From a virus (lineage: Duplodnaviria > Caudoviricetes), in IMG/VR virus record IMGVR_UViG_3300021387_000147: 64,000 nucleotides of DNA; one strand, written 5' to 3'. The notes beneath the pieces are model-generated. The model saw only the letters and a list, made by a program, of their open reading frames with translations. It was not told the DNA's origin and searched no databases. The translations under genes and the position numbers were made by a program. This document shows positions 3,435 to 54,502 of this stretch, piece by piece (the stretch's first letter is position 1; each line of letters begins with the position of its first letter).

Positions 3435-3513
3435 ACCTCTTTTTGAATACAAGTATAATATAGTAAATTTTATGGCCCTTGGTAACCCCTTTTTATGTAA
3501 AATTTTATTTACA
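3435..3513 (-). promoter_or_regulatory. Early promoter cassette copy 1 (box 3496-3513; TTACCA-17-TATATT)
   Basis: TGTAAA-N6-TTTACA 10 bp upstream of the -35, then SD. Confidence 0.8.
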
Positions 3514-3514
3514 T

Positions 3515-3606
3515 TTAGCCCTTCCAGGATGAATTCTGGGCTCTTTTTTGTCCCGGGCATGTAATTATACGGCAAATATAAAAAGAGAGCCCTGGAAGCG
3601 CTCTCT
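3515..3606. repeat. GC-rich hairpin element copy A (includes a terminator-like GAGAGC/GCTCTC stem)
   Basis: Aligns by eye with 21114-21203 and 54510-54594. Confidence 0.65.
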
Positions 3607-3628
3607 TGAGTCAAATTTTATGTTCTTT

Positions 3629-4246
3629 TTAGTCCATAAAGGCCCATTTTTCTGGCTTTTCATCACCATTTATCCATGTAATCAAAGGTTTACAATTGGC
3701 ACCCTTTTCCCATTCAAACCAAGCGTATGCCACTGCTCCAGCCCCAAATAATTCCTCATCGCCATTTTTAGCACAATTGGAACGTTGAGTCAATACATAG
3801 ACATTTTTCAATTGATTTGTATCAAATAACTTTCTTCTCTTTTTACCTTCTAAGAAAGTCAATTTCAAATACATTACAACTTTCCTTCCTTTTGGTATCA
3901 TTTCAAGTGCTTTTTCTACACATTCTTGAGCCAATTCATAAGGAGGATTTGTGACTATATCACCATCAAAAGTTTCTTGTTGTTCTAAGAAGTTCCATGT
4001 TTTATCTAATGGATATTCTCTTTGTATTAAATCAGCACATGTAACATTATAGCCTCTATCCTTAAAGACTTTAGCTATATGACCATTTCCAGCACAAGGC
4101 TCTAAGATATTTTTTGAAAAATCAATTTTACATTCAGTAAATAACTTTTCAACTATCTTAGGATTTGTTGCATAAAAGTCATTTTGTTCTCTTTCATCTT
4201 TACAATGATTAGAACATCCATTTGTCACATAAATCTTATCTGCCAT
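3629..4246 (-). CDS. DNA methyltransferase (N6-A/N4-C class)
   Basis: NDFYAT, ILEPCAGNGHI (motif I), DIVTNPPY (motif IV), YAWFEW. Confidence 0.85.
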   Translation of the reverse strand: MADKIYVTNGCSNHCKDEREQNDFYATNPKIVEKLFTECKIDFSKNILEPCAGNGHIAKVFKDRGYNVTCADLIQREYPLDKTWNFLEQQETFDGDIVTNPPYELAQECVEKALEMIPKGRKVVMYLKLTFLEGKKRRKLFDTNQLKNVYVLTQRSNCAKNGDEELFGAGAVAYAWFEWEKGANCKPLITWINGDEKPEKWAFMD

Positions 4247-5076
4247 TATCTAATACTTTCTTTAGAGCATCAATATCTGCTTCTGGATTGATACATGTTG
4301 AATTTGGCTTATTTTTAATTTCATTATACAAGTCATAATCATAATACTTACTATCTTCATTAAAGATAACCTTGTATAAATCACACTTGTAAGCATAACT
4401 ATCAGTCTTATTTCTCTTTGACTTTTTAATCATGTAATTCAAAGCGTCTTTAAGAGTTTTCTTATTTAATGCTTTGATATACATTGCACAATGTTCATAT
4501 TGACCACATGCAAGTAATTTACCAATATCATGTAATACTTTCATATCAGGCTTCATGAAAAATTCAACGATAGCCTCAATTGATTCTTTAATTGTCATTT
4601 TATCACCTCTTGTTATAAACTTCTAGAACTTTTGTTTTATATTTATTAAGCAACATTGCTAATACAATTTCATACATTGCTTCACTAAACGAATATTCAT
4701 GTTTATTAGCATCATAATCTCCAGAATAATCTAGAAAATCATCAGAATACGAATAGTGTCCTTTAAAGTCAATTTCACCTTCATATCCAAGCTTAGGAAT
4801 TTTCACATCATTTTCCCATAAATCATTACACAAGAAAATGTATTCATCATCTGCAAAATCAATATCCCATTCATGCACATCATACAATTTAAAGATCGCA
4901 TCAAATAATTCTCTATCAGACATTAAAGTTCCGAAGATTTTGACTGAATAACTAATCAACGTATCAATATCTTCTTTAAGATTTGCATATTCATTATTAG
5001 ATGCTTCATCTAAAATTTCTTGTGCATATTCTGGATCAAAACATAGATCTTTTTCATCAAAACCATTGTTATACAT
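4236..5076 (-). CDS. Two hypothetical proteins (4236..4598, 4603..5076)
   Basis: Packed ORFs on the coding strand. Confidence 0.6.
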
Positions 5077-6068
5077 TATGCTACCTTTAATTCATTAGAA
5101 ACTTTTTTATAGCGAAGAACATACTTCATTTTAACAGGAGTATTACGATAATTAAATGTTTTACTTGTTTTTTCTACTTTATCTAAAACATACTGACCAG
5201 CAAATTTGATTTTATTACCCTTTCCAACGAAGAAATTGTAAATATCATCTTTAGCTGTCTTATAACGCCAATTTTCAGAGTACTCTTCATTCGTATACAT
5301 ATCCATTGTCGACAAATCATTAGCATATTCATTATACCAATATCTACCTTGACCCTTAGCATTCCAATTGTTCATATCACGAGTCAAGAAAATCTGGCCA
5401 GGATATTTCTTTGTCAATTCCTTATCTGGATTTGTATTTTGAATAGAACCCTTTGTTAAATCATGACCATATTTCTTATAAAGAACTTCTACAATAGATT
5501 CTTTTCCTTTAGATGCCTTTCCCCAAGTTGGTGTCTGCAACAAAGTATTAAACAAATCAGACTTTGTAATGAATTCAAAATTATCTTTAATTCTAATCTT
5601 ATCACCTGAATTATATCTAATAAATCCAGGACGGTCATCCCAATTAAACTTCTTATGTTTAGCTACATGTTTACGAACGCATTGCAAGAATTTTTCAATA
5701 TCTTCCATTTTCTTTTCTATACCATGCGTCACATCTACACGGCAAATCTCAAAGTCATCGCGACCAATCATTGCCATCTTTTCAAAAATATCCAATTCAC
5801 GTTGCTTATCTGCTTCTTTCTGACGAGCATGGTGACCTTCATCAACTTCCAATCCAACATTGATTGCATCAAAAGTCAAATCAATTAGAGCCTTTCCATT
5901 ATCTCTCTTTACATAAGCCTGGAATGTTGGCTTCAAATCCCAAAATTTAAACCCCATTCTATCCATTAGACGGAGTTTAACCGTATTGATAACTTCTACT
6001 TCAAACTTCTTGTGGTCATGCTTATTTAGTTCTTCAGACCAATATAAATCTTTTTCATCAATTGTCAT
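5076..6068 (-). CDS. PvuRts1I/AbaSI-like PD-(D/E)XK nuclease
   Basis: Q.YVKR...ALIDL.F....LEVDEGHH..Q.EAD..RE.DI resembles the AbaSI-family nuclease domain; longer C-terminal domain follows. Confidence 0.65.
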   Translation of the reverse strand: MTIDEKDLYWSEELNKHDHKKFEVEVINTVKLRLMDRMGFKFWDLKPTFQAYVKRDNGKALIDLTFDAINVGLEVDEGHHARQKEADKQRELDIFEKMAMIGRDDFEICRVDVTHGIEKKMEDIEKFLQCVRKHVAKHKKFNWDDRPGFIRYNSGDKIRIKDNFEFITKSDLFNTLLQTPTWGKASKGKESIVEVLYKKYGHDLTKGSIQNTNPDKELTKKYPGQIFLTRDMNNWNAKGQGRYWYNEYANDLSTMDMYTNEEYSENWRYKTAKDDIYNFFVGKGNKIKFAGQYVLDKVEKTSKTFNYRNTPVKMKYVLRYKKVSNELKVA

Positions 6069-7817
6069 TTCTTTAATTCCTTTGATATAGAGTCATCGTC
6101 AATGTAAATATATTCATCTAAATCTTCTTCAAACTTTCGCTTTCTAACTTCATACTTTTCAAGTGCTTCTATTAAACGCTTAGCATCCTCTATATTAGCG
6201 AATGCCACATAGTCAACCAATCCAGGAACTTCAATTTTATTACTTGACGAAAAATAATAACTAGATTCTTCGTAATATACTTTACGATATTCATCCCATG
6301 TAGCGCTATTCCAAAATATCCATCCCTTACGCTGAGGCATGTAATAAATTTGACCTTTATAGTCATATTTCTTTAATCGCCATTTAAATAACATTTTAAA
6401 TTCCTCTAGTTATGAGGCTGATGCTCATCCCAGCAAGCCCATTTATTTGGACTATTTTTGTGTCCTTCATAGCGATGCTTACGTTCAACCTCAATCGCAT
6501 TTCTAATTTTGTCTGTGTTAATTAAACCCCATGCATAATGGTGCGCCAACATCTTTCTTAAAACTGCAATAGTTTTGTCTAAATCCAACTGTTCTTTGTC
6601 ATCATTCGTTCTTCGTTTCAACTTATACATGTGAGCAATTTCTTCTCGAATCTGCCAATAATCTTTAGCAAACTTAACAAGAGAAGCCGGATCTTTAAAA
6701 TCTGAATTTAACAAAACTGTACTCATTTAATTTTTAGGTCCTTCAACTACTTCAACAACTTTATCCTTATTTTCCCATTCGTATGCTTTTTTTTCAAATT
6801 CCTTCATGGCCTTATACGCTTCATCCAAAGTCTTATAATCAGACTTTCCATTAAAACCAAAATCATCAATCGGGTACCAATTCAAAGGACATATACCTTC
6901 CCAATCAACACTATCATATTGCCAACACTGAACCTGAAAAATTCCAAGATTTGTCTTAACAATTCTTGTCGTCCACAGTTTATACTTATGATTATGTCGA
7001 TAAGTTAAAACAGGAATAGTAATAAACAATCCAATTGCTATAACAAGAATAATAGTAGCAAGAGCATGACAAGTAATCATTTTAAAATCTCCTTTTATTA
7101 AAGCCAGTAAAAAAGTACAAACAAATGTTGTTTTGTTTCATATACAATACTCTGTATATCAGCCCTGTTTATGCGACGTTGTTTTACATAATCACAAAGA
7201 TCATCATGACTTAAAAAACTGGCACTAACTAATTTCATAAAATCTCCTTTTACTTGACCTTCTTAAAAAAGTCTTCACGTTCTTCTTTAGTCATGTATTT
7301 AAGCGGAATAAGAGGATTTGGACCATATTTTCCATTATAACGCTTTTGACGAATTTCCATATCAATTTCTGTTCCACGAACAAACTTTGCAAAATTAACT
7401 CGCCAAGCAACATAAAGAGGAATATACGTATTCAACAACTGAACTCGCGTTTCCATATCAAGTGTCCTACGAATTGCCTTAGAAAGAGCTTCCAAAAATT
7501 CAGCGGCCCTATAATAAGCCAAATAATATTGATATTCAAAGTTGTTCTTTCGCATTGTATTTACCTCTTTTATTTTATTAGTAACAAAGTTCCCAGTTGA
7601 GCCACTTTGCTAGGTGAGTATAAAGACGTTCCCAAGCTCGGTCATAACCATCGTTGCTATCATAATCGCTCAAATAGTCACGGCTAACCAATTTACCATT
7701 TTTGTAAAGGTTAATCTGGTCGGGGAATCGTTCAATTTCAAACGTTCCGCGGATTGTTTCAATCGTTTCGCCGTCTTTCAAATTTTTAAGATTTTCTGCC
7801 GTGATTTTTCTGTTCAT
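6065..7817 (-). CDS. Cluster of small hypothetical proteins (6065, 6406, 6727 [N-terminal TM], 7250, 7578)
   Basis: Packed ORFs with SD motifs, downstream of a promoter cassette. Confidence 0.6.
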
Positions 7818-7823
7818 TGGTTA

Positions 7824-7955
7824 CCTCTTTTATTTTAACAAGTAAAATATACTAATTTTGGATTCGTTTGTTAACCCTGTTTTTTGTAAAAAGAAGTTTA
7901 CATTGCATAAAAATAGGTGCTCTTTTAAGCACCCTTTTGTAAATTTAAATTTACT
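7824..7955 (-). promoter_or_regulatory. Early promoter cassette copy 2 (boxes 7885-7902 and 7938-7955; TTAACA-17-TATATT)
   Basis: Conserved leader TATATTTTACTTGTTAAAATAAAAGAGG; hairpin between the two boxes. Confidence 0.85.
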
Positions 7956-8505
7956 CAGCTTTTACATGTTTAAATCCAAGCGCTTTCGCTTCTTTTACTG
8001 TAATTGTATCGCCATCTTTATACAATTTCTTTTGTCCTTCTTCGTTAACTTCTCCACTTTTAAATGTAGATGCAGGAAGAGGATCTCCAGGATGGAATGT
8101 ATACATACAATCTCCAATTCCATCTTCTGGTCCAACAATCAAAATCGTATAATCAACTCTTTCACGCTGATCAGTCTTCATACAAAGCGATAAGAAACCA
8201 GTATTCTTAAAATCTCTGAAATGACAAACTGTATCATCAGTAAATCGATTAATATCCAACATACCATGATAACCAGGAATATCTTTTGTCTTAAATGCTT
8301 TACATCCAGGAGACAATACATTTTCAACATCAATCCATGGAGTCCAATTTGCAGTCATCAATCGATTTTCCATTTCATCAACAGTTTCACATTCTGTTGT
8401 AGAACCAATACCATTCTTCAATCTCTGTTGGAGACATTTCTTAAAGTAATCTGGCATGTTCTTCTTTGTATTCTGAATACAACTTCTTACATACTTGTTA
8501 ATCAT
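7951..8505 (-). CDS. Hypothetical protein
   Basis: 184 aa ORF; its stop codon lies in the box at 7950-7955. Confidence 0.65.
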   Translation of the reverse strand: MINKYVRSCIQNTKKNMPDYFKKCLQQRLKNGIGSTTECETVDEMENRLMTANWTPWIDVENVLSPGCKAFKTKDIPGYHGMLDINRFTDDTVCHFRDFKNTGFLSLCMKTDQRERVDYTILIVGPEDGIGDCMYTFHPGDPLPASTFKSGEVNEEGQKKLYKDGDTITVKEAKALGFKHVKAE

Positions 8506-11547: not shown

Positions 11548-11555
11548 ACAAATTT

Positions 11556-11859: not shown

Positions 11860-12012
11860 CTTCCTTTTAATTTTACTAATACAATATACCTATTTTATTT
11901 TCATCTGTCAACCCTTATTTTTGTAAAAAATTATTTACAATACCATTAAAAAAGCGCCCCGATTTCTTCGGAAGCGCTTTGAATTCAAATGTTATGTAAA
12001 TTTTATTTTACA
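11860..12012 (-). promoter_or_regulatory. Early promoter cassette copy 3 (boxes 11922-11939 and 11995-12012; TTGACA-17-TATATT)
   Basis: Consensus -35; AAAGCGC...GCGCTTT hairpin between the boxes. Confidence 0.85.
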
Positions 12013-16669: not shown

Positions 16670-16749
16670 TTTTCCTTTTCTTTAATAAGTAAAATATAAC
16701 AAAAAACGAGGGTCTTGTAAACCCTCTTTATTGTAAAATTATGTTTACA
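16670..16749 (-). promoter_or_regulatory. Early promoter cassette copy 4 (box 16732-16749; TTTACA-17-TATATT)
   Basis: -35 lies in a GAGGGT/ACCCTC hairpin. Confidence 0.8.
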
Positions 16750-19499: not shown

Positions 19500-19562
19500 T
19501 ATCTTAATTATACCTTTTTATTTTACTTTTGTCAACCCTATTTTTGTAAAATTTTATTTACG
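19500..19562 (-). promoter_or_regulatory. Early promoter cassette copy 5 (box 19545-19562; TTGACA-17-TATAAT)
   Basis: Perfect sigma70 consensus; box 9 bp upstream of the -35. Confidence 0.88.
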
Positions 19563-20978
19563 CAAGAGCAAGTCCAACAATCAACAAAACCATCAAAGCC
19601 AAGTCATACAAACCACGGAACGGATGGCCTGTGAAAATATTGAGAATTCCAATTCCACGAAAAACAGCCAAAATTATTCCCATTACGAATGCCAAACCTC
19701 CAAGAGGATTTGTGGCGGAAATGATGGTCAAAACAAGTAGCGCTATAATTCCAAGCAATACTATGATGGCTGAAAGAACTTTGATTCCATCACCCTGGTC
19801 TGCGGCCGTAGCCATTTCGCCGAAACACTTGATGATTCCTACCACATGCTGAATTGCACAGAGAATGAAGAGAATTGTGAGCATAATTGCCATAGTTATT
19901 TTTCCTTTTTGCTAATGTTTTTAATGAGTTTTTTCTTTGTATTAATTCTAGAACATCTTTCAAGATAGTCAAATAAACTTTCTCTACATTCTAGAAATTT
20001 ATTATATTCTTTTTGATGGTCTTTGAAATACTGTTCGAATGTGCCCTTAAATGGCTTATAGTCAGTTGCAAATCCCATATTATTGTGATTAGGGATATTA
20101 TAAAAATAATATAAAGACTCTCGATCACGAATACTAAACTTATCTTTAAAAAAGTTTACAAAATCAATAAGATTTTTTCTACTTATATTAAAGTATGATT
20201 CTCTTTTAATTTGATCACCTGCTCGAGATTCAACAAAGCCCGTTGGCATAGTCATCCAAAAACTAACAACATTTGTAAGTTTACCATTGATTTCACGAAC
20301 TTCTAGATTAATGCCGGCTATATTTGTAGTTTCGTAATGTTTATCAACATAATTATATTGCTGAGTGTAAGCAAGTTCAATAGATGCCAAATGTGCATCA
20401 CTTTTATAGATATGCATAAAATTAAATGACTTATGGACAATAAGTGTTTTCAGCCAATCATTCATTGCAGACACAGCAGGTTTCATTTCTATTCCTTAAT
20501 TTGTTTTAAATGAGCGTAATTCCCAGAATGCAGAAAATCACGAGTAAAAATACCAAGAATAATAAACCGACAAGTTCACAAACAATAAAGCAAAGAATGA
20601 ACTTGCCAATTATGATTAAAAATTCTTTCATTACTTAGTAGCCTTTTCAATAAACTTTTCAGCAATCTTATCGATAGCGCCTTTAGTCTTAAGGCCATTG
20701 CAATCGACAGTGAGTCCACCCATGTGATCAGACCAAGGATAGCCTTCGCTATCGTAGCCAATCCAAATTTCTTCAATCATCATTTCATGCTTATCGCACG
20801 GCCAGAAGATGAAGCGGTGAGAATTGATGCAATGACAAGTGCCATTGTCAGTGCGAATGTTGAGGGTAAGTTGGTCGTTATCGACAGAAGTACCATCAAC
20901 GTTGAGGTTGTTTTTAACTGCCACAGTTCCAACAGCAGTGCGAAGTTCTTCCAAAAACATTTCCATAGTCATATTCAT
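19558..20978 (-). CDS. Membrane protein (19558) and hypotheticals (19896 with KKKLIKNISK tail; 20631)
   Basis: Packed ORFs on the coding strand. Confidence 0.6.
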
Positions 20979-20980
20979 TA

Positions 20981-21092
20981 ACCTCTTTTATTTTAACAAG
21001 TAAAATATAAGTATTTTGGAATGTTTTGGTAACCCCTTTTATTGTAAAAAGAAGTTTACAATATAGTCCAGTTATGTAAAATAATGTTTACA
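20981..21092 (-). promoter_or_regulatory. Early promoter cassette copy 6 (boxes 21043-60 and 21075-92; TTACCA-17-TATATT)
   Basis: Conserved leader and tandem boxes. Confidence 0.85.
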
Positions 21093-22218: not shown

Positions 22219-22995
22219 TTACCACTTAAAAGTTAAAGTCCCATTCAAGTGAGTCTTATCATAAGTCCAGTCCATATCTATACCTTCTTTCTTGAAGATT
22301 TTTTCAACAGCGGATAGGTCTTCAATGTAACATGTAGGTTCATGGTATAGAGGATTTTTACATGAAATTTTCCCGCATGCAATAGGAAATGTCATTTTAT
22401 TGTCTTTACAGAAACCATCCTTCACGCAATTTCTAATCGTCTCCTTAAACTCCGCAACTATATGTTGCAAGTTATTGTTACGAGGATTGACTTTCTCTTG
22501 TAATGCGATCAGTTCATCTTTAAACATTTTTAGTTCTCCTTTAATAATTATCTTGTTTTAGAAAATAAGTATACTTGTAATCTAGATCTTTCTTCGCTAT
22601 TTCCAAAAGTTCTTTAACTTCATCAAAAGTCTCAACTTCGTAAGCAAAGTCTATATCGTCTGTCCAATATAGTTCAAATCCAATTCCAGTATATGCAGGA
22701 CGAACGTCATACAAGAATTCTACTGGATTATCACCTTTGATACCCTTTTTCTTTCTAAGTTCTTTAGTCGGATGTCTGTCAATATGATACATAATTATCC
22801 TCTAGTTAAACTTCTGTTAACACATTGCAATTCGACATTCATATACTTTTGATTATCAAGCTCCGCCTTTAAAGCGGCATTCTTATCTAACAATTCCTTA
22901 GCGAATTCCATTAAGGAATTCACCATAGAATTATCAGTATTAGGTTCTCTTGAATTTACAAAGTTTTTCATTTGTTCGAATTTCTTTGGATCCAT
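22219..22995 (-). CDS. Three small hypothetical proteins (22219, 22541, 22795)
   Basis: Packed ORFs. Confidence 0.55.
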
Positions 22996-25118: not shown

Positions 25119-25229
25119 TCTCTTTTATTTTAACAAGTAAAATATAAGTATATTTGGCTCATTTGGAAACCCTGTTTTATGTAAAAAAACGTTTACATTA
25201 ACCTCCAGATATGTAAAAAGGTGTTTACA
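25119..25229 (-). promoter_or_regulatory. Early promoter cassette copy 7 (boxes 25180-97 and 25212-29; TTTCCA-17-TATATT)
   Basis: Conserved leader and tandem boxes. Confidence 0.85.
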
Positions 25230-25969: not shown

Positions 25970-25998
25970 AATGTAATAAAAATTTTTACAATTGTCAA
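25970..25998 (-). promoter_or_regulatory. Sigma70 promoter for clpP (TTGACA-17-TACATT)
   Basis: GGGTTGACA -35; 17 nt spacer. Confidence 0.7.
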
Positions 25999-26697: not shown

Positions 26698-27257
26698 TAC
26701 TTACATTTATCCTTAATACAGAAATCAACTAAACTTTCTGCAGTATTTTCTCTTGTGCATTTCTTAATGCATTTAATAAATTCTTCTTTACTACCTTGAA
26801 TTTGAACTTCTTCTACAGGTTTTGTTGGCACAATCTTTGTAATAGAATCCAACTTCTTTTCATATTCAGCAAGTAATTCTTGTTTTAACTTTTCTGTATC
26901 AACATTTGAAACTGTCTGCTGAACAACAGGCTTTGGCTGTTCAATAGGCTTTGGTTGTTCTGCGGCTTTCTTTGCTCTCTTTTCTACTCTATATTCTGTG
27001 ACAAGTTTCCATGCCCTTTCATGATTGTTTAAACACCTTTCCATGTTTACTGTGCAAAGACTATCAAGAACATTTATCTTGCATTTGCCAGGATGTGCAT
27101 AACACATATCTTTATAAATTTCAGGTGTTTCAACATAACAACGGTCACCTTTTGATTCACAAATCATATTAAAAAGCTTAGGTACTGCAACAGCGGCAAG
27201 AATGCCCATGATTACAATTACGACCATCAATTCAATTAAAGTAAATCCTTTTTTCAT
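26697..27257 (-). CDS. Type IV pilin-like protein (class III signal) with Cys-rich C-terminal domain
   Basis: MKKG/FTLIELMVVIVIMGILAAVAVPKLF: prepilin cleavage site, E5 and P22. Confidence 0.9.
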   Translation of the reverse strand: MKKGFTLIELMVVIVIMGILAAVAVPKLFNMICESKGDRCYVETPEIYKDMCYAHPGKCKINVLDSLCTVNMERCLNNHERAWKLVTEYRVEKRAKKAAEQPKPIEQPKPVVQQTVSNVDTEKLKQELLAEYEKKLDSITKIVPTKPVEEVQIQGSKEEFIKCIKKCTRENTAESLVDFCIKDKCK

Positions 27258-28173
27258 TCGTCACCTTCCTTAATTAAAACTACCCATTCTCCAGAACAAG
27301 TTATATGACCTTCCTTTTTAGTAGATGGAGTTATCTTTCCATGACATCCAACAGAATACCAGAGAGGATTGTCAAATGTAGTTCCCCATGTAGCCATTCC
27401 AATTTCAAGTCCTGAACTAATTTGTCTCTTCAAATAAATTGGATAACCTACGCCAAATAATTCCAATGCAGGTCTTCCATGTTCAGGAACTCCATCTGTT
27501 GTAATTTTTCTCTTATCAATGACAAGTGAATCAATTAAAGCACCTTCACACTTTGGAAGATTATACGTTTCAAATGAGTTGCTAACGTATACCGTGTCAT
27601 GAACTACAACCTTCTTGACTTTCTGCCTTGTCTGTGTTGAGTCTTTTTCTGTTCCACTTCCAATGAACATGCCACCCAATCCAGCGAGCATAAACAAGAT
27701 AGTCAGAATAAGTACCTTTTTAAAATCCATTATCTTTTTCCTTTGATTTTAATTATCCATTCACCTGCACATTCAGAATAAGTATCACTATCAGGGTCAT
27801 CTTCATCGTATGGAATGTCATACATTTTTCCATTACAAAGAATTGCATATTCTTCGACACTATCTACATCGAATGTTCCATCAGCAAATTGAACTGAAAT
27901 GGCAGTAGTACCCTTATGTGTCTCCAGCGTATCCAGACGCGCTCCAAATGCGTTAGAATAAGAGACAGCGTTTATATACTGGATTCGCTTAACTTCTTTA
28001 TAAAGCGTATCATGGACGAATGTGGTATCTCTTACAACAGTCACAAGAGTGTCCATTTTCTTCATTGAAGTTTCATAACATTCATCAATCTTCTTAAGAA
28101 TTGTATTTGAAAAGACAATGATAGCAACAAAGATCGCTGCGAATAAAATTATATGTTGATATTTAACGTCCAT
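27254..28173 (-). CDS. Two paralogous membrane-anchored proteins (27254, 27730)
   Basis: N-terminal TM, VHDT[VL]Y linker, shared Y...C.GK...C.GEW[VI][VI].IK C-terminus. Confidence 0.7.
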
Positions 28174-29897: not shown

Positions 29898-30720
29898 TTA
29901 GTTTAAGTTTGTTGTTTCGTTAACTTCTGTTACCTTATATGCAGGTTCACCCCACATTTCCCAATTACGTCTCCACTTTTCACATTCAAGTTCAGATTGC
30001 TTGAAAATTTTAGTATCGACGAAATTACATACTGAATGCGCTACTGCATTTACTGCCTTTTCAGTTACTCTAGGATTAGGATCAGCCTTTACCTCAGGGA
30101 GAATCTTTGAGAACTGTTTAAGCATCCAAAGAACTGGAATTCCGATTACTTTGTAGACAAAGCGACCTACATAAAGTGCAATGCCGTACAGAGTAAGAAA
30201 TAAACCAAATCCACCTACGTTAATTCTTGTTACAATCTTATTCATTTGTCTTTACCTCTGAATATTCAATCCATTTACATGTATATCCATATATCATATC
30301 AGCTTTTGGCCAAACGTCAGTAAGTGTAAATGTTCCAAGCGTATCTGGAAGTTTAGCCTTTGCATTCCTTGGACAAACAATCCACATGATAGATACTTTG
30401 TTTTCAACTACTCCATCATAAGAGAAACTGTCATACCAACAATTTGCGAATTCCTTCTTGTCCTTAATTGAAGACCATGCCTTAAATGCAGACTTTGAAT
30501 CGCATTCATCTGGACGAGTGATTTCTCGAATTACTGGCGGAACATTTGTTGAATCATCGTATACAATATCATTCAATGCCTTTTTAGAATTCGTTTCCTT
30601 TTCCATATTGCATACATAAACAGCAGAAGCGAGAACTAAAATTCCAAAAATAACAATAAAAGCCTTAAGAAAGAATGACTTGATTTCAGCTTTTGTTTTT
30701 TCATACTGCATCATAGTCAC
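29898..30720 (-). CDS. Two membrane-anchored hypotheticals (29898, 30238)
   Basis: N-terminal hydrophobic helices. Confidence 0.6.
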
Positions 30721-31458: not shown

Positions 31459-31541
31459 CCTCTTTAATTTCTTTTAACAAGTAAAATGTAGTTAATTTTT
31501 GCTGTTTTGTCAACCCTTAGTTTTGTAAAACTTTTTTTACA
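31459..31541 (-). promoter_or_regulatory. Early promoter cassette copy 8 (box 31524-41; TTGACA-17-TACATT)
   Basis: Leader TTTACTTGTTAAAA conserved. Confidence 0.85.
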
Positions 31542-31735: not shown

Positions 31736-31856
31736 CCTCTTTTATTTTAACAAGTAAAATATACCAAAAAAGAAGGGTCTTGGAAACCCTTCTTTTTGTA
31801 AAATTATGTTTACAATAGCCAATTTTTTGGCTTTTTTATGTAAATTTTTGTTTACT
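31736..31856 (-). promoter_or_regulatory. Early promoter cassette copy 9 (boxes 31797-31814 and 31839-56; TTTCCA-17-TATATT)
   Basis: -35 lies in an AAAAGAAGGGT/ACCCTTCTTTT hairpin. Confidence 0.85.
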
Positions 31857-35533: not shown

Positions 35534-35573
35534 AATATAATAAAAACACTGGACTTTGTCAACCAGTGTTTTT
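35534..35573 (-). promoter_or_regulatory. Terminator hairpin with TTGACA in its loop, then 17 nt and TATATT (late-to-early boundary)
   Basis: AAAAACACTGG-TTGACAAAGT-CCAGTGTTTTT-AT-TATATT. Confidence 0.8.
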
Positions 35574-37255: not shown

Positions 37256-37774
37256 TCACCTATATTTCAATCCAAACTGTTCTTCTGTCAATACCTTAAA
37301 AAGATAACCATGTTGTCGACACCAACGTTTAGCGGCTTCCCACTTCTCATAGTTTCTTCTCAATGTATTACATCTCTCCTGCCAATTTTCTATTGCCTTC
37401 TTTGATTTCTTTTGAGGTGGATCTGGATATTTAATCTGACCCGCCTCATTCAATATAGGTGTCTGACTTTCTGGCTTTACTTCCAAAATATACTTCTTTA
37501 CTTGTCCATCTTTATCTTTACAAACAAATAAAAAATCAGTCACATATACATGATTCTTTCCATCAATCTGTGAATAATATGGAACTTCCAATACTTCAGA
37601 ACCCCATTCAATTACCGAATTTGTTCTATCACAGAAGTTGCAAAAAATCTTTTCCCAAGAACTTCTAAATGTAATAGGTTTTGCTCTAGGCATTCTCCCA
37701 TTATAATTTAGACATTTTTCAGGATGATCTGGCTTAAAACAGCCTTGTAAATAATTACCACTAAATATACTCAT
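37256..37774 (-). CDS. Head completion nuclease (T4 gp4-like)
   Basis: FKP.HPEK, FRSSWE, CD....V.EWGSE..VPY, Y.TDF, LEVKP..QT, KWEAA..WC, FKVLTE. Confidence 0.88.
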   Translation of the reverse strand: MSIFSGNYLQGCFKPDHPEKCLNYNGRMPRAKPITFRSSWEKIFCNFCDRTNSVIEWGSEVLEVPYYSQIDGKNHVYVTDFLFVCKDKDGQVKKYILEVKPESQTPILNEAGQIKYPDPPQKKSKKAIENWQERCNTLRRNYEKWEAAKRWCRQHGYLFKVLTEEQFGLKYR

Positions 37775-45761: not shown

Positions 45762-46763
45762 TTATGCTATTTCAAAGAATCCTAATGGAGATTCCAATCT
45801 TATCTGTTCTCTACAATCATCCCATTCTTCTTTATAAGATGAATACAAAGAATCAGCATTCAAAGAACCACCGCCTGCAATTGATAAAGTATACTTACGC
45901 AATGCATTAGTCCATATCATACCTGCTCTTGCAACTACCATACGTCTAAAGATTACATCATTAAATAACTTACTTGACTTCTGTCTCTTGTATACTTCCA
46001 TCAATCCTCTTACAGGATGGTCAGGTTGAGGCCATACAGATAATTCCTTTTCTTTCTCATTATATCTTACGGTATATGATTCACCGAAATCCATCTTAGC
46101 CTGTTCCAACCATACAAGTGCAGCATTCCAATGACCTAGAACATCACCAAATCCACCAGCATTACTATAACAAGAACCTGTAAAGGAACTACCCATACTC
46201 ATTACTGTGTTATACAAAGCATTGTGTGGTAGAGTAAACAAATCATTGATTGTTCCCATCCAATCTGAAACTTGGAAATCTACAATAGACTCTAATTCAT
46301 CACAGATTTTATAGTGTGATTTTCCTGGTACTAAGTCCATAACAAGATAATCTCTATAATTACCTTCTCTGAAATAATACTTCCACATGTATTTAACTGT
46401 ATCAGCAATAATGAAATTCAATTGCTGATCTGAAATTTCAATACAAATTACTGGAGCACCTAACATCATCTTAATGTAGTTTCTCATTTGAGCTACATTC
46501 TGAATGTTCATCGCATCCATAAACTCATCCCTAACAGGAGGTTTAAATGGAGGATGTGGAGGTGCAGGTGGATGAGGTGGAATTATATCAGGTTTTGGTC
46601 CTGTTCCTGGCCATGGTCCATCTGCTGGAGGGAATGGTCCTCTTATTTCATTTCCTGGAAGCATACCATCCATTGGAGGATGCATTGGAAACATTCCACC
46701 TGGAGGTGGAGGAGGTTTTGGAAATGGTCCTTTCTTAGTAATTTCTTGTGTTATATTAGCCAT
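45762..46763 (-). CDS. Neck protein (T4 gp13-like) with Pro-rich N-terminal extension
   Basis: YIKMMLGAPVICIEISDQQL, W...L.KY....AGG..LN. Confidence 0.82.
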   Translation of the reverse strand: MANITQEITKKGPFPKPPPPPGGMFPMHPPMDGMLPGNEIRGPFPPADGPWPGTGPKPDIIPPHPPAPPHPPFKPPVRDEFMDAMNIQNVAQMRNYIKMMLGAPVICIEISDQQLNFIIADTVKYMWKYYFREGNYRDYLVMDLVPGKSHYKICDELESIVDFQVSDWMGTINDLFTLPHNALYNTVMSMGSSFTGSCYSNAGGFGDVLGHWNAALVWLEQAKMDFGESYTVRYNEKEKELSVWPQPDHPVRGLMEVYKRQKSSKLFNDVIFRRMVVARAGMIWTNALRKYTLSIAGGGSLNADSLYSSYKEEWDDCREQIRLESPLGFFEIA

Positions 46764-46767
46764 ATAC

Positions 46768-46810
46768 TATTTATAACACAAAATAAAAAAGATGGTATTA
46801 ACCATCTTTA
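46768..46810 (-). promoter_or_regulatory. Terminator (46786-46810) and late promoter TATAAATA (46768-75)
   Basis: AAGATGGT-loop-ACCATCTTTTT then TATAAATA. Confidence 0.75.
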
Positions 46811-47164
46811 TTTCTTTTTCTTAGGAGCTCTCTTCCTTTCTGTTGTAATTTTCTTTTGCAACTTCTCATTAGCCTCTTCCATACTCATTGTTTCTAAGGC
46901 TGATTTCTGTATAATTGCTTTAGGCTTATTCTTCTCAATATATTCTTTATCCTCATCATATTCTTGTGGAGTTTCAAATTTTCTCCAATAAGATACTCTG
47001 TAGATATTACCAATCTGTTGAGACATTGCTAAGAAATTCTTTTTACATTTCTCCTTAAATGCTTGTGCTTCCTTTTCTGTAGCAAACTCTCTATAAGTCG
47101 TATCCTCACGAGGGAATGCTAACCACTTTGGAGCATATTTGCTCACATATTCTTTATTTGCCAT
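46808..47164 (-). CDS. Basic hypothetical protein
   Basis: Last ORF of the array operon. Confidence 0.6.
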   Translation of the reverse strand: MANKEYVSKYAPKWLAFPREDTTYREFATEKEAQAFKEKCKKNFLAMSQQIGNIYRVSYWRKFETPQEYDEDKEYIEKNKPKAIIQKSALETMSMEEANEKLQKKITTERKRAPKKKK

Positions 47165-50100
47165 TAGAACTTCTCCTTACAAATGTTTTGAATTTGTCTT
47201 CTTTTAATTTCAGCTTTCAATTTACGAATATAATCAACTATTGATTGTAAACGATTTACAAGCTTCTTAGGTTTTTTGTAATAATTATATCTATCGTCCA
47301 TCAAAATAAAATACTTCATAACTCCTTCAGCATTTCTTTTTTGAGCCATTTTAGGATGATATACCTTACATTCACCATTCGTTTGACATGAAGCAATTAA
47401 CTTATGACGTGCATTATCATTGTCAACATAAATTCCAATAGTCTCATCCCATGGAGCTATAGAAAAAGTAGTAAAACCAAACTTTTCTGCTATTTGTTTA
47501 AATTCCACTTGAGTCATGTATATGCTCCTGTAAAGCAATATTCTTTATTTGTGCTTTCTTATAATATCTTGTTCTCTTCTTATATAAATCTTCCAAATGG
47601 TCGACCATACTTTTAAAGTTATGATATTGTCTTAATTTCAAATTCTTATAGAAAACATCATATCTCCACAGTTTATGTTTCTTATACCAATGATAAAATT
47701 CTTTATATGTTTTACAATATTTTTTATAAATAAGTATTTTAAAATCATCATCCTCTCTTATGTAGATATATGGAACACTATCAAAAGTTAGAGCAGTCTC
47801 AAAAAAATTAGAACTGATCATATCATCAACATGTGCTAAAGGACATAATTCTTCTAGCTTTAATTTAATTAGATATAAATCATGTTCATTAAAACTTGTT
47901 TCTTCTTTAATTCTATAATCACATTCAAGTCTTATAGCCCAAATAAAAACAAATACAGCAATAGGTAAAACAGCTATTATAAACATTATTCATCTTGTCC
48001 TATTGATTTAATTAATCTTAATTTATATTGTTTCTTCCAAAATAATGTGTCTTTTTCAACTCTTTTCAAATGATTTTTAAGTGCTTCTTTTGAAGCCAAT
48101 GTTCTTCCATTACCTCTTGTACAAATGGCGCCCATACAATCTAAACGAATATCATAGCATCCACCTCTTTTAGTTTCAGCATCAAGCCATGCAATCAAAT
48201 TATCTGCAGCTCTTTCATTATTCAAATAGATAGCTACATAATTTGAATATTCACCATCTGTATCATAACCAAATTCTTTAGCTACTTCTATGAATTCTTC
48301 TTTAGTCAATTGTTTCGCCATCTGCAATACTCTTAATTTGATTTAATTTTATAATACGTTTATAAATGTGTATTCTTTCTGTGACTTCATCAAGCCAATC
48401 AATAAATTCTTTTTGTGTCTTAACTACTTTTGAATTTTGTTCTGTCTCTATAAGATTGATAGCTCTATAAAATATTGGGTTATGTAATTCTACACCATAA
48501 GAACAACATATCGCTAAACACATTTCATTTGTATAAATGTTATCAATGTGTATACGATAATCTCCCATTGATTCTAATAAAGGATTTAATTCAAATCCAT
48601 ATTGTTTAGCTATATTTTTAAAATCTGAGGCTTTCATACATCTTCCTTACATATATTCTTAATAGCTTCAAGTTTCTTTAACTTATTAAGTTTAGTTTCA
48701 AATGTAGGAACTTGTTTAATAAATTCTTCTAATGTTCGAATACGTGCAAATTCTTTTTGCTTCCATAGTGGATATTCATCAACCTTAACAATAAAGAAAT
48801 ACTTATCTTTAGATTTATGATATTTTAACCATTCTTTATATGTTTTAAAATTGTTCTTGTATAACATACAAAAGAAACGAGTATCATTTAGTCCATAACC
48901 ATGATTTAATCTAGAAATTGTAAAATAATCTTTGCCTTTACAACTTACTTCTAAACCACATCTACGAATAGACCTATCAATCATTGCAACAATCTTTGTA
49001 CCTTCTTCATCACTAACAGTAATTGGCATTGACATTAAACGTAAGCGTCCTAAAAGATAACTTACATAAAAAATTGCCATAATACCAAATATAATTGCTA
49101 AAGGTTCCATTAGTCTTCCTCTTTACAAATACTTTGAATTTTCATTAATTTTTCTTTTCTAACTGCAAGCTTCATTTGATTTGGTATATCATTAAACATT
49201 TGATAAAAATCATCATACTTAGCAACAGGATTCAAATATTGAAATGCTCTTGCTTCAAATACATACGATAAACTAAATCTCAAATCTGGCATTTTTCTTT
49301 TCTTTAAGAAATCAAAAAAACTTGTATAAGTCAATCTATCAAAAGTATAATATAATTTATCTTCAATATAAAACGCATCTTTATATATTGCAAAGTTCAT
49401 TTCATATCCATATTTAGTTTCTACTTTCTTTTTAATTGTATCAAAAAGAAATTTCCTTGTTTGTTGGTCAAAATATGGTAGCTCATCCTTAATAAGATTA
49501 TAATGAATTACTTGGTATATCATCCAAAGAACGCATAACGTTAATGCGGTCATCAAAATAAAAGCTACACCTATACCAATAATCGGAACTAACATATATC
49601 CTTTTCTTTACAAATACTTTCAATCAATAATTTCTTATAAATTTTCTTTCTATCTCTAATAAGTCTTGGAAATTCTTTTTCAAGCTTAAGAATATCAGTG
49701 TACACTTCAAATAATGTTTCATCAGGATATGGACCAGATATGTATTCATTATACGGCATATAAAAAACTGAATAGTAAATATTGGATTTATGCTTAAGAA
49801 AATGATCTTTAAAAGAGTAAGGGTTTTTCTTAAGATAAATAGCCATCTCACCAATTTCTACTTCCTTATAAGACCATCTACTATAGAATGGACCATATTT
49901 AACCATATTATACTTTTGATACAGTCCATGCATGTGCAAATAAAACCAATGCCATTCCTTTTCTGTAATATGATTTTTATCATCTTTATAATACTTCCAA
50001 ACCATACACAGTACACCGCATATAGCAAGAAAATATAATGGTGCAAGCATAACATTAATCATCTTTACAAATACTCTCTATTTGAAATTTCTTAATATCT

Positions 50101-52108
50101 TTCTTAATAAATTTTACCAATCTTAAATACAATTCTAAATTCTTTTCAAATTCAGATTCATCTTCAGAATCAAAATACGTTGAAGAGCAACCAGTATCAA
50201 TTGCTCCATTTGTATAAATTTCAATAGCATTCTTTAATTTAATCTGATTACAATTAGTGTTTAATTGCGTAATAACTCTATGATGATCTTCAGGTAAAGA
50301 AAAACAAATAAAATGTTTTCCACCAATAATCTGTTTACCAACTTCCTCTTCAGTCAGTTGTTCCAAACCATGTTTCTTACAGATCTCAATAAATTTTTCT
50401 TCACTCATACTGGATCCTTACAAATGTTTCTAATACGACGGAGCTTTTCAGTTATATTAAAAAGCTTAACTTCCTTTGTAATGCTTAACAATTCATCTTT
50501 CAAAATTGCAGGGTCAGTAACAGTAATTCCATTTATTGCAGTTGACAAATAACATTGACCATCGTAATTAACAATTTTTATTTTGTTATAGAGAACACAT
50601 TCGAATAAAGCATTTCTTAAATGCTTTTTATTATAATCAATAGTGAAGACAATTACAATATTTGCTTCAGATGCAGTAGTATATGTCGGTGTATTTAAAG
50701 AAACTACATACTTTTTGCTTAAACTTTTAGTAGTGTCACATTTATCAAAAAGATCTGGCTCATAACCACATTCATGACAAATGTTCAAAAACTTTTCTTC
50801 ATTTAATGTATCTTCTTTAACGTGAGAAAACATATTATTCCTTACAAATGTGTTTAATTTCGTAGAGCTTTCTTAAGCGAGCAAACTTCTGTTGTAATTC
50901 ATTATTCTTTTGAATTTGCTTTTCAATTTCTTCGTATGCCTTCTTAAATCCATCTACATTCAAACAGTTATCAGTAAACTTAACTGGATATTCTGCGATA
51001 TATTCCTTTGTTGTAGGAAATGCTATTTGATATGCATATTTTTCATTACCTTCATAGAAATAAAGAATACGCAATTTCTGCAAAGTCAGTGTCAATGTAT
51101 GCACAACTTTGTTTGTATACTTTCTTGTCACTGCATCTTTAACAGTTTCAATCGCAGACGTATACTTGATAAATGGATGCTGTGCTTGATGAGCCCAAGG
51201 TTCATTACAATAATGATAAATGAAAGATGTGCCATCACAATTATGATTGAAAAAACTATTGCGCCATAAATCTTCAAGCGTATACTTTTCAAGATAATCA
51301 TCATCTTTAAGTGCATCCATCATGTTAATAGTATATTTCTTTTGAATACCCATAAATGCACCATTTGACCAATTAGCACAGATCTTATTTTCACTTGGAT
51401 GTGCAGTAGAACGTGCCAACTCAGTTCGCACATAAATCTTCAAACATTCAATCATCGCTTGTTTCAATGCATCAGTCATATTCTTTCTATCCTCAATATC
51501 TTGCACAACCTTATTAAACTGTTCAGATACTGACTTCATAAGCAATTCTGTCATTAATCTTCATCCTTTCCAATAGAATGGATGGCGGCATATTTTGCAT
51601 TTCGAACAGAAGCCTTAATCATTGCTTCATTCTTTTCCTGCGTATCTCGAATTAAATCAACTGCCAACTTCCAATCTTCAAAATCTACTTTCTTAGAAAA
51701 ATCAAAATCATATCTTTCACGATAACCACCACATGCAAGCTGAACAGGAAGTTTCTTTTCATCTACATACTGATAAATGAAATTGGGAACCATCATTGTC
51801 AAAGAAATTTGCCATGGATGCCAATTCTGTCCACTTGCTCTCCAAACACTGCAAGTAATATCCTTATAAGTATACAAATTCCAATAAGTATTATCAGCAA
51901 TTTCTAAATAATAGGCTTTGCGGATTTTTTCGAACTTTTTAATAGGGTCGAAAATCACGTGATAGTCATGATGAAAATCACCATTCAAAATCAGCTTTTC
52001 TTCAGACGCTTCATAACGGTCGATAATATACAACTGTTTGGAATGCTCCTTAGACAAATACTGGAGCATATCCACGATTTTCATTTGAGCATCCCATTCG
52101 TTATACAT
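47164..52108 (-). CDS. Tandem array of 11 coupled small genes sharing a C-terminal I-x-x-I-[CGA]-K-[ED] tail (47164, 47498, 47986, 48302, 48634, 49110, 49589, 50055, 50405, 50835, 51554)
   Basis: Overlapping stop/start codons; four have an N-terminal TM and five share [ED/K]F....K..G[FYL]. Confidence 0.8.
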
Positions 52109-52292
52109 TATTCAACTTCTCTTCCGTCAATTTCAGTGTCAGCCAAGAAAGAACCAAACTTCTTGATAATCTTCTGACGATTTTCCTCGGCCTTAGCCTT
52201 GTCATGATACACGCCCCAAATCATACGGCGTTCGGGCTTGTCCATAGTGTTATAAGTCAAAACATATACCTTTTCCATAATTTACCTCTTAA

Positions 52293-52478
52293 TTATTCAG
52301 CAGGCCAAATTGCTTCAATGTGATTAATTCCTACGACAATGGTCGTTCCACTAATTCGCAAATCTTTACAATTAACGAATTTTACGAAATGTTCATCCAT
52401 GGCTTCAATAGTACCGGTAAAACGAGCACCCATGTTAAACTTGCCATGCAACCAGTATCTTTTTCCAATTTCAAGCAT
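52293..52478 (-). CDS. Small Sm/SH3-like beta protein (tentative)
   Basis: G..FTGTIEAMDEHFVKF....INHIEAI pattern. Confidence 0.5.
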   Translation of the reverse strand: MLEIGKRYWLHGKFNMGARFTGTIEAMDEHFVKFVNCKDLRISGTTIVVGINHIEAIWPAE

Positions 52479-52482
52479 CTTA

Positions 52483-52593
52483 ACCTCTTTTATTTTAACA
52501 AGTAAAATATACTAAAAAAGAGGTTTCTTGGAAACCCCTTTTAATGTAAAATAAAGTTTACAGAACTATAAAATATGTAAATTATAGTTTACT
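52483..52593 (-). promoter_or_regulatory. Early promoter cassette copy 10 (boxes 52545-62 and 52576-93; TTTCCA-17-TATATT)
   Basis: Conserved leader, tandem boxes, hairpin over the -35. Confidence 0.85.
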
Positions 52594-54369
52594 TAAGCAA
52601 CGTTTTTCCTTCCTTCATGCGCTGTTCATACAACTTTCCAAATTCCTCAGCGCTATCCGGAATGTCTTCGTCTTCCATATTCATATTAAACAATTCCCAT
52701 TGATCACGCGGGAAAGACTCCTTATCGGCTTCAATCTTCGCAAGCGTCATAGAATTTACTTCATCAAGCTGATTATATTCATCATTTGGATTAATATCAT
52801 CATAGCTGATTTCAAATGGAACATTAGTTTCCGTATAGAATGAGGCCTTAATAAGCGGCGTATTCTTATCCTTCAGTTCCTCAATAATTTCTTTCTTGAT
52901 TTGCTGGAACGTTGCTTCATCAGGAACGTCCTTATATTCATATCGAGTTTCGTCACCACCTACACAAGCAGAGCGACCCTTTCCATTGACAGCGAGAGTA
53001 TAAATTACCTTAACCATGTCTTATTCCTTTTTTGTATTGTTTCCAAGTTGGATGTTTATCTTGATGTGTTAAATGAAAATTCTGACAGAGCTGACAAAAA
53101 TAAACATTCTTCTCATGTCGATTATTATTTCCATTTAACTGATTAATTCTTTGACAGCGATATAATGCAAACTCTGCATCTATCTTTGTCTTATAACAAA
53201 TTTTTCCAGAAGGGCATTCAGTCATCAATCCCCCTTTACAGCCAAAGTTAAAAGTTCAAATTTCTTTTTGTATTTCTTGTTTGTTTCTTCTTCCTCATGA
53301 ATTCGTTGAGCCATCTTACGGAACTTTTCCTTAGTACTTTCCCATGCAGCGACAGAATATGTACCATCTTCCGTAATTGTTTCCACATTATCTAACTTGA
53401 AACAAAGGTATTTCTTTTTGTCCTCTTCCTCAAGCGCAAAATGGCCAGACGTTCCAAACTTGATGCAATACGGATAAGTTAATTCACCATGCTTATAGGC
53501 GAAATACATACGTATCTGCCAATATTTGTCTTCCTTACTGAAAGAATAATCTCTCTTTAATTTGTCTTTACTAATGGATTCATCCATGCTGAATTCCTTA
53601 ATCATATCGATAAAGTCATCAACAATGGTAAGCCAACTTACGCGTTGAAAACGCTTCTTAAAATTTTCAAACATTACTCGTCACCTCTTAGACGAAGCTG
53701 GATGCAGTGACAAGTTAACCAATCAAAATCACCAACACCAATCTTCTGCACAAAACCATCAACAATCTTCTGAGTACGGACTTCATCATCGTCATTTTCA
53801 AGAATAGTCACAAATGGATATTTCGTAGTGGAAAGAATTTCAGTCACTTCCTTCTCAACCTTTTCATCATTTGCACAGACAATAATGCCAGGAACCTGAG
53901 GTTCAGTGGGATAATACTTGAGCATTTCTTTGAACTGATACATTTGCATAATAAAGTCTCCTATTAAAGATGGAAGTTAAACCAAGCCTTAAGCTGATCA
54001 AAATCTTTGTATTCGAGAGTGCAGTCATTCAAGTTAGTCTTAAACTTGAGTGCAAACATTGCACCATTCTTCTGAGTTTCCGGATATTCAACAAATTCCT
54101 CAATCTTGCAGAAAGTACGGTGACCCTTGCGAGGATGGCCATAAGCCTTGTTATAAGCAGCGATGCAGTTAGAAATATGAAGTGCTTTATCACCAGTCAT
54201 TGTAAACTCCTTAGAACATTAAAGATGTGATGCTATCAGCAGCGATTACGCCGAGGATAAGAACTACGCCAAGGAAGTATTCGCCAAACTGCTTAATTTT
54301 AGCAACCTTAGCCTTATGCTGATAATAAGCAGTCCAGTTTTCAAATCCTTTAGGCATTATTTCGTTCAT
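52589..54369 (-). CDS. Small early hypotheticals (52589, 53010 [C..K..Y / Y.C..C...HLT Zn-binding], 53225, 53674, 53964, ~54211-54369)
   Basis: Packed ORFs with SDs. Confidence 0.6.
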
Positions 54370-54374
54370 CTTTA

Positions 54375-54502
54375 ACCTCTTTTATTTTAACAAGTAAAAT
54401 ATAAGTATATTTGGATTCTTTGGAAACCCTGTTTTTCGTAAAATAATGTTTACAAAAGGCCTTGGAATGTAAACATTTTGTTTACGTAAACTAAAATTTA
54501 CA
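54375..54502 (-). promoter_or_regulatory. Early promoter cassette copy 11 (boxes 54437-54, 54468-86 [N7], 54485-54502)
   Basis: Conserved leader; TTTCCA-17-TATATT. Confidence 0.85.

Follow-up and report, generated by a model that had tools for sequence, protein, structure and literature searches.

The window analysed here, which is the whole 64,000-nucleotide stretch of the viral record IMGVR_UViG_3300021387_000147, contains eleven similar intergenic modules between positions 3435 and 54502, each of which carries an 18-bp palindrome of the form TGTAAA-N6-TTTACA (hereafter, the box) at a fixed place upstream of a predicted promoter. We propose, with a probability of about 0.6, that this palindrome is the operator of a dimeric regulator that governs the early promoters of a giant T4-like phage by way of promoter-early stem-loop (PeSL) cassettes. 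The binder is probably lineage-specific and phage-encoded. An earlier reading of the same DNA (the original prediction) had claimed a genome-wide early regulon, and this claim holds in the sense of a putative class of sigma70-type early promoters with one fixed palindromic site. Three points had escaped that reading, namely that the phage is T4-like, that the module below -45 is a T4-type early promoter, and that most modules contain terminator hairpins.

Allowing at most one mismatch, the box is found 20 times in the window where 0.75 copies are expected; none of 100 shuffles had more than 3. The pattern of the whole cassette (GTAAA-N6-TTTAC-N8-GGGTTNNCA-N17-TAYANT) is found ten times, on the minus strand only, and never in the shuffles. 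The boxes are thus much rarer in shuffled sequence; an equal frequency there is what the original prediction had named as evidence against itself. The module at 19545 is the eleventh, with a gap of 9 bp between box and -35 where the other ten have 10 bp. All genes of the window lie on the minus strand, and the modules occupy gaps between them, ahead of small open reading frames (ORFs) and of nucleotide and RNA-repair genes. In all eleven modules GGG precedes the -35 hexamer (TTTCCA four times, TTGACA three times, TTACCA twice, TTAACA and TTTACA once each), a 17-bp spacer leads to the -10 hexamer (TATATT in nine, TATAAT in one and TACATT in one), and this predicted promoter is followed by an AAAGAGG-type Shine-Dalgarno (SD) sequence and an ATG. 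Five modules share an identical 26-nt leader, and a sixth has it with a one-base difference. On re-reading, the modules, their coordinates, hexamers and gaps, the fixed position of the palindrome and the common leader all proved to be as originally described. They are listed below in plus-strand coordinates, low end first; box 1, or the only box, is the promoter-proximal one.

3435..3513, minus strand: cassette 1; box 3496-3513, -35 TTACCA 3480-3485, -10 TATATT 3457-3462, leader with SD; terminator-like hairpin upstream at about 3583-3607.
7824..7955, minus strand: cassette 2; box 1 7885-7902, -35 TTAACA 7869-7874, -10 7846-7851, canonical leader 7824-7849; upstream, terminator hairpin at about 7915-7934 and box 2 7938-7955 (one mismatch, 53 bp upstream).
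11860..12012, minus strand: cassette 3; box 1 11922-11939, -35 TTGACA 11906-11911, -10 11883-11888; upstream, terminator hairpin at about 11951-11980 and box 2 11995-12012 (73 bp upstream).
16670..16749, minus strand: cassette 4; box 16732-16749, -35 TTTACA 16716-16721, -10 16693-16698; hairpin at about 16709-16725 with the -35 in its loop and a T run after it.
19500..19562, minus strand: cassette 5; box CGTAAA-N6-TTTACA 19545-19562, 9-bp gap, -35 TTGACA 19530-19535, -10 TATAAT 19507-19512; leader unlike the one common to other cassettes.
20981..21092, minus strand: cassette 6; box 1 21043-21060, box 2 21075-21092 (32 bp upstream), -35 TTACCA 21027-21032, -10 21004-21009, canonical leader 20982-21007.
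25119..25229, minus strand: cassette 7; box 1 25180-25197, -35 TTTCCA 25164-25169, -10 25141-25146, leader with one mismatch; box 2 25212-25229 (32 bp upstream), its centre forming the 3' arm of a hairpin.
31459..31541, minus strand: cassette 8; box 31524-31541, -35 TTGACA 31508-31513, -10 TACATT 31485-31490.
31736..31856, minus strand: cassette 9; box 1 31797-31814, box 2 31839-31856 (42 bp upstream, one mismatch), -35 TTTCCA 31781-31786 within a terminator-like hairpin at about 31769-31795, -10 31758-31763, canonical leader.
52483..52593, minus strand: cassette 10; box 1 52545-52562, box 2 52576-52593 (31 bp upstream, one mismatch), -35 TTTCCA 52529-52534 within a hairpin at about 52519-52539, -10 52506-52511, canonical leader.
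54375..54502, minus strand: cassette 11; box 1 54437-54454 (one mismatch), N7 variant 54468-54486, box 3 54485-54502 (48 bp upstream), -35 TTTCCA 54421-54426, -10 54398-54403, canonical leader.

The identity of the phage was approached through its relatives. Strains 85-95% identical to the window are present, in pieces, within two metagenome-assembled genomes (MAGs) of GTDB (Ca. Coprovivens and Succinivibrionaceae), and the pieces encode Gp23, the T4 portal (Portal_T4), gp15, a Peptidase_S77 prohead protease, RegA, the T4 terminase and baseplate proteins. In the window, the late-promoter motif TATAAATA occurs ten times on the gene strand versus twice on the opposite strand, and seven copies lie just ahead of genes, mostly structural ones, as T4-type late promoters 5-19 nt before the gene starts (63942, 55068, 46775, 45711, 37254, 15342 and 12344). 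Because the related pieces carry T4-type genes and the window has such late promoters, we consider the phage to be a giant T4-like rumen phage. Among known phages, neither 8 kb of the window (megablast) nor a 1592-aa protein (tblastn) had a match in INPHARED, and a 539-aa protein of the window had none in a peptide-pattern scan of IMG/VR. Some of the late promoters are so near the gene start that an SD site has no room.

The RegA homologue (PF01818), which is encoded on a piece of the related strain G002, may also bear on the leader of the early cassettes. This leader (TTACTTGTTAAAATAAAAGAGG, for example at 7824-7849) is near-identical among cassettes, A/U-rich and unstructured, and given the RegA homologue it could be a common translational operator.

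Below the palindrome, the module has the appearance of a familiar promoter class. We collected 60 cassettes from the window, IMG/VR and MAG contigs, and aligned the 47 non-redundant ones in a position table, in which the box extends from -63 to -46 and is followed by an A tract (-45 to -42), a TTnnCA -35, a 17-bp spacer, a TATATT -10 and a C at -3, with TTACTTGT as the conserved start region. GGG at -38 to -36 is kept in 43-46 of the 47 copies, even though it was absent from the search pattern. T4-type early promoters are described as having a G at -36, an A-rich UP-like stretch at -40 to -44, a TAnnnT -10 and a C near -3 to -1 (PMC1524935), and each of these features is found in the table. 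From -45 downstream the module would therefore be an ordinary T4-type early promoter. The likeness extends to a TTTAC-like -35 and to the position ahead of early genes and small novel ORFs (PMC1524935). The window cassettes differ in that conservation reaches -63 as a true palindrome, that a GGG triplet is kept and not one G, and that the commonest -35 is TTTCCA.

Hairpins with a folding free energy of -6 to -15 kcal/mol and T runs are found in or beside at least seven of the eleven modules; their placement varies (between box 2 and box 1, upstream of the boxes, or around the -35), and three of them enclose the -35. Carrying both an early promoter and a terminator hairpin, the modules would class as PeSL-type cassettes. 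The PeSLs of RB49/phi1, T4/PST and KVP40/nt-1 likewise combine an intergenic stem-loop terminator, an AT-rich stretch, a sigma70-like early promoter and an SD, and are present in numerous near-identical copies before small accessory genes (PMC2839356, PMC4122927). The nt-1/KVP40 stem (A3-4G3-loop-C3T3-4) recalls the AAAGGG...CCCTTTT stem of the window cassettes, and in both systems some indels between strains end within cassettes. Unlike the window cassettes, however, no PeSL has been described with an invariant 18-bp palindrome fixed before the -35 or with repeated upstream copies of it; the -35 is often within the hairpin loop here, and the enrichment of breakpoints at our cassettes is only modest. 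Indeed, the string "palindrom" does not occur in the text of one of the PeSL papers (PMC2839356), and a literature search for the motif in phages gave nothing relevant. The new element thus appears to be the palindrome at -63 to -46, added to a PeSL-type T4 early promoter cassette.

This arrangement is not restricted to the window. The cassette pattern was found on 12 IMG/VR contigs, 18 stretches of GTDB MAG contigs and 111 metagenome stretches (rumen and activated sludge), which together represent about 119 non-redundant cassettes among relatives. Of the 60 collected cassettes, 53 have a gap of 10 bp between box and -35 and 6 a gap of 9 bp, and 51 have TATATT as the -10. Box and promoter class also go together when the box is left out of the query: a search with the -10 and start region alone (TATATTNTAC) returned 64 non-redundant matches, of which 46 have a box, and these 46 hold nearly all the matches with a recognisable -35, while most of the 18 unboxed matches are without one and look like chance. 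The -35 hexamers of the 46 boxed promoters are mostly weak (TTTCCA in 21, TTTACA in 8 and TTGACA in 4). Three intergenic promoters of the window, on the minus strand, have no box; they have a perfect TTGACA at 813-818, 25993-25998 and 35557-35562 and different leaders, and in two of them the -35 lies in the loop of a terminator hairpin. The true immediate-early class may consist of these box-less promoters. In T4 and KVP40 the box is absent, with only three one-mismatch copies in each, which is the chance level.

Two singular arrangements were noted among the relatives. At locus L041 (G002:C19), near 7079 on the minus strand, a 10-bp duplication (TAAATTTACA) widens the distance between box and -35 to 20 bp, so that the box is shifted by one helical turn and stays on the same face. 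At two other loci, L005 (3031-3557) and L012 (2396-2922), four cassettes lie within about 500 bp, before sequence of non-coding appearance.

The pattern of conservation within the palindrome is that of a protein site. Nine alignments of orthologous cassettes with related strains, not all of them independent, show 1 difference in 108 arm positions, 8 in 54 positions of the centre (Fisher p 0.0007) and 14 in 153 positions of the spacer. G-62 and C-47 never vary and the two arms mirror each other strictly, while the A/T-rich centre is variable. A mismatch in one arm is not accompanied by a compensating change in the opposite arm, which argues that the sequence, and not pairing, is under selection. 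Measured from centre to centre, the box precedes the -35 by about 22 bp, which corresponds to two helical turns. The palindrome therefore seems to behave as an operator of two-fold symmetry that has to be turned towards RNA polymerase. As for the dimeric regulator of the original prediction, conserved arms and a free centre fit a dimeric sequence-specific binder, but the search for the binder itself, described below, did not find it.

Extra boxes are frequent upstream of the promoter-proximal one. In the window they lie 31, 32, 32, 42, 48, 53 and 73 bp upstream of box 1; the second-box distances that had been reported agree with this (31, 32, 32, 42, 53 and 73 bp), except that a second "31" corresponds to a 19-bp N7 variant at 54468-54486. 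Across the family, 57% of cassettes have an extra box within 100 bp, and the 82 distances measured in the 119 non-redundant cassettes comprise two dominant classes, 30-33 bp (n=20, of which 14 are exactly 32) and 39-43 bp (n=24). The helical phasing claimed originally holds within the window, where six of the seven extra boxes are at most 0.5 bp from a multiple of 10.5 bp. It does not extend to the family beyond the classes of about 32 and 40-43 bp: the other 44 distances range from 22 to 88 bp, most of them across an inserted hairpin, and show no 10.5-bp period (Rayleigh R 0.08, p 0.77). Two preferred close arrangements, of about three and about four turns, would fit cooperative binding, and no general phasing rule is suggested. 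In double boxes 39-42 bp apart (for example at L040, L041, L006 and L024), the spacer repeats, incompletely and in inverted orientation, the centre and right arm of the box (AAAAAGAAGTTGAC). This copy could form a hairpin with the upstream box or serve as a half-site at a distance of 20 bp from both boxes. The idea that paired boxes form a plus-strand promoter (TTTACA-N16-TAAAAT at 21055) was dropped because only the 32-bp class fits it.

A second phage offers a parallel. A box-free scan for the promoter pattern retrieved G066 (IMGVR_UViG_3300031992_000171), a rumen phage contig of 45.9 kb and 38% GC that shares no proteins with the family of the window phage save one weak match. Between 23415 and 35610 (loci L063-L065), this contig has 22 perfect TAGACGT-N3-ACGTCTA palindromes. 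Each one follows a terminator, and for the majority the distance from the end of the palindrome to a near-consensus TTGACA / TGnTATAAT promoter of a small gene is about 8-10 bp. The presence of a different palindrome at about the same place suggests that the binder is most likely phage-encoded and lineage-specific. Such a layout would be expected of phage-borne operator-regulator pairs and would be hard to square with an element read by RNA polymerase only. Operons driven by cassettes encode 56-aa DUF7336-type proteins in both phages (window 52108-52278, a weak match with E 0.001-0.005; G066 30081-30251, E 1e-17).

In the mechanism that we envisage, each cassette would join a sigma70-type early promoter to a terminator hairpin and to a leader that binds ribosomes strongly, and the eleven modules would be early-class transcription units, each insulating a few consecutive early or accessory genes and driving their expression. 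A sequence-specific homodimer would bind the palindrome next to the contact between the A tract and the C-terminal domain of the alpha subunit (alpha-CTD) of RNA polymerase, and one such binder would control all the early promoters together. It might be a repressor or anti-activator that ensures a timed shut-off or, equally, a delayed-early activator of promoters with a weak -35. While the anatomy, conservation, distribution and T4-like context of the cassettes are observed, we infer from them that a protein binds, what kind of protein it may be and in which direction it may act.

Concerning the sign of control, activation is suggested by the distance of two turns between box centre and -35 centre with an intervening A tract suited to alpha-CTD, and by the contrast between mostly weak -35 hexamers in boxed promoters and perfect ones in box-less promoters. 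Yet T4 early promoters favour TTTAC and are strong, and the G066 promoters are near consensus but tagged by a palindrome all the same. Timing also bears on this point. A phage-made protein comes too late to activate immediate-early promoters, whose activator must be host-derived or injected, and a phage-encoded binder would consequently be a shut-off factor, a delayed-early activator or an injected protein. Other phage systems offer comparisons. At the A2c/A3 promoters of phi29, a dimer of p4 bound upstream of the core promoter touches alpha-CTD, activating where the -35 is weak and repressing strong promoters, from few sites at about -82 and -71. The CIR sites of phiC31 and the stoperators of mycobacteriophage L5 are operators with many copies over the phage genome; these phages are temperate, and the sites serve mainly repressors or roadblocks. 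The cassettes described here would resemble these systems in the proposed upstream dimer in contact with alpha-CTD or in the spread of operators.

T4-type early promoters are usually seen as self-sufficient, very strong promoters of host type. An invariant operator on essentially all early promoters, together with the G066 parallel, suggests a simple and widespread control of the early programme by one protein. The abrupt shut-off of T4 early promoters is still described as incompletely understood (PMC3014915), and many T4-like phages are without the MotA system for the next stage (PMC1524935). Because the site is sharply defined, its binder can be fished out directly; in addition, the cassette is a ready-made, insulated and co-regulated expression unit.

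Several observations weigh against an operator read by a phage regulator. Pfam and PHROG scans that covered G066, about 110 proteins of the window and about 210 ORFs of related strains gave no helix-turn-helix (HTH), ribbon-helix-helix or other regulator among the best 25 families per batch, in agreement with the earlier remark that no candidate regulator is visible in the window; HTH_3 matches in two MAGs lie on contigs not known as phage. The immediate-early promoters cannot depend on a protein that the phage has yet to make. The T run of the box (-53 to -49) plus the A tract resembles an UP element, and the G066 palindrome could equally reflect a different host factor.

Other searches for the binder were as follows. 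AsiA and the C-terminal domain of MotA were not found in the partial phage genomes, in searches without a positive control, and for these two reasons their absence is not demonstrated. A phmmer comparison of the small proteins of the window phage with G066 gave no candidate binder. One lead was a TnsA-like PD-(D/E)XK protein (window 37256-37774), which has an apparently intact D...EVK motif, lies within the head/tail block and is 99-100% conserved in four relatives. It could not be linked to the box. It has no similarity to the gene that heads the G066 array and no hit in a PDB sequence search; two single-sequence AlphaFold models were too poor for use (pLDDT, the predicted local confidence score, of 43-47).

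A binder of unfamiliar fold has a precedent. In the Bacillus prophage SPbeta, the short element SPBRE is repeated in about ten promoter regions of a large phage genome; it was predicted 24 years before its binder MrpR, whose fold is that of a dead tyrosine recombinase missed by HTH searches (PMC10516654). The binder of a repeated phage element can thus have an unexpected fold. The repetition of one element in many promoter regions of one phage genome is found here as well. Differently from our case, SPbeta is temperate, the element maintains lysogeny, and SPBRE is 15 bp long with no fixed position relative to the -35 (PMC10516654); no MrpR-like protein was identified in the window phage. In its most specific form, which we advance tentatively and regard as possible, the operator reading would involve a phage master regulator with a fold outside the HTH models, acting in early shut-off or in a delayed-early activation that replaces MotA, with lineage-specific operator-regulator pairs placed at the same position.

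A host factor is the best surviving alternative to a phage-encoded binder, although we consider it unlikely. A host dimer, TyrR or another global regulator, would be hijacked as a class-I activator so that the early promoters fire at once. The TyrR box consensus is TGTAAA-N6-TTTACA, with an essential G and C 14 bp apart and matches at 10 or more of 12 positions, and TyrR is reported to activate through alpha-CTD from sites upstream of the -35 (PMC4374768). The window box agrees with this definition, including the G and C 14 bp apart, and strong and weak boxes are paired in both systems. Moreover, early promoters require a factor already present, the majority of -35 boxes are weak, and some cassette contigs were binned with Succinivibrionaceae or Gammaproteobacteria MAGs. 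The identity of the consensus, noted in the original prediction, stands. The link to TyrR itself is weakened: in the candidate hosts, its model (NF008085) found no protein above the cut-off in the five MAGs with phage contigs, and among 61 Succinivibrionaceae-family genomes it had no match at E<=1e-100, while E. coli, used as control, was recovered. An HTH_50 match in the Succinivibrionaceae MAG, tried as TyrR, proved to be a generic sigma54 activator. Perfect boxes in four phage-bearing MAGs are almost exclusively on phage contigs, and binning of the cassette contigs is split among Bacilli, Clostridia, Lachnospiraceae and Gammaproteobacteria, so that these MAGs need not be the host. The geometry also differs from that of TyrR, with dozens of perfect sites on one phage, 22 bp between box centre and -35 centre versus 33 bp at ipdC, and paired boxes at 32 and 40-43 bp versus 26 bp at mtr (PMC4374768). 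Finally, an unrelated phage has a different palindrome at about the same position. The match to the TyrR consensus is probably coincidental.

An extended UP-like element to which the two alpha-CTDs of RNA polymerase bind, perhaps after ADP-ribosylation by the phage as in T4, would need no dedicated regulator, but this reading of the palindrome is improbable. The A and T tracts at -60 to -58, -53 to -49 and -45 to -42 speak for it, as does the T run, which is stronger in promoter-proximal than in distal boxes; in T4-type early promoters, the A-rich UP-like stretch at -40 to -44 is tied to Alt-modified alpha (PMC1524935). Such an element would account for the A tract and perhaps for the T run, but it explains neither the invariant G-62 and C-47 nor the symmetry of the arms and the free A/T-rich centre. 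The UP consensus defined by Estrem et al. in 1998 reportedly consists of A/T tracts from -59 to -38, needs no G/C and is not palindromic. With respect to this consensus, the proximal A tract fits but the distal tracts are shifted by 2-3 bp. The extra boxes lie 30-90 bp farther upstream with no promoter of their own, T4 and KVP40 are without the box, and the analogous G066 palindrome is GC-rich.

We give as little credence to the idea that the module is a recombination cassette only, retained because it provides a patch of homology or a recombinase site for gene shuffling of the PeSL type and not for transcription. PeSL-mediated shuffling is documented (PMC2839356, PMC4122927), and some strain differences do end at cassettes. 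In G001:C71, a clean 1.49-kb deletion fuses the box of cassette 5 with that of cassette 6 (19551 is joined to 21040), further indels end within cassettes at 7827, 19544 and 31819, and contigs of other strains diverge directly after the leader at 20975 and 25111. In addition, the related strain G002:C9 is without a block of about 1.7 kb (52297-53962) that consists of cassette 10 and four downstream genes. In total, 5 of 62 breakpoint ends are 30 bp or less from a cassette, for 1.8 expected (p about 0.035). The remaining 57 ends, however, lie away from cassettes, and contig breaks at cassettes are also what assemblers produce at repeats. Simple homology would keep the centre of the box like its arms, whereas the centre drifts, and a gap of strictly 10 bp before the -35 suggests contact with RNA polymerase. 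Thus the cassettes would at times act as seams, like PeSLs, which leaves the conservation pattern of the box unexplained.

The weakest alternative, a structure and not a sequence (the palindrome as an RNA or DNA hairpin serving as terminator part, RNase site or cruciform), can draw on the transcription of the box as 3' end of the preceding unit and on copies in which a terminator-like hairpin takes in the T run or the centre (the 25212 box and the 39-42 bp class), but is very improbable given a stem of just six mostly A-U pairs, an invariant arm sequence with zero compensatory changes across more than 100 copies, and boxes downstream of a terminator that would hardly be transcribed.

Two further differences were seen in sequence collections that include RNA libraries. 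The stretch 22225-22551 of the window, a 102-aa gene, is cleanly missing from the contigs of all four RNA-library assemblies, with AT at the joint; this indel is away from the cassettes. At 27171-27821, the summed contig depth is 351-867 in three of four sheep-gut RNA libraries versus 5-30 elsewhere in the 13.5-33 kb region, a peak that could correspond to a highly expressed gene or to cross-mapping from another organism.

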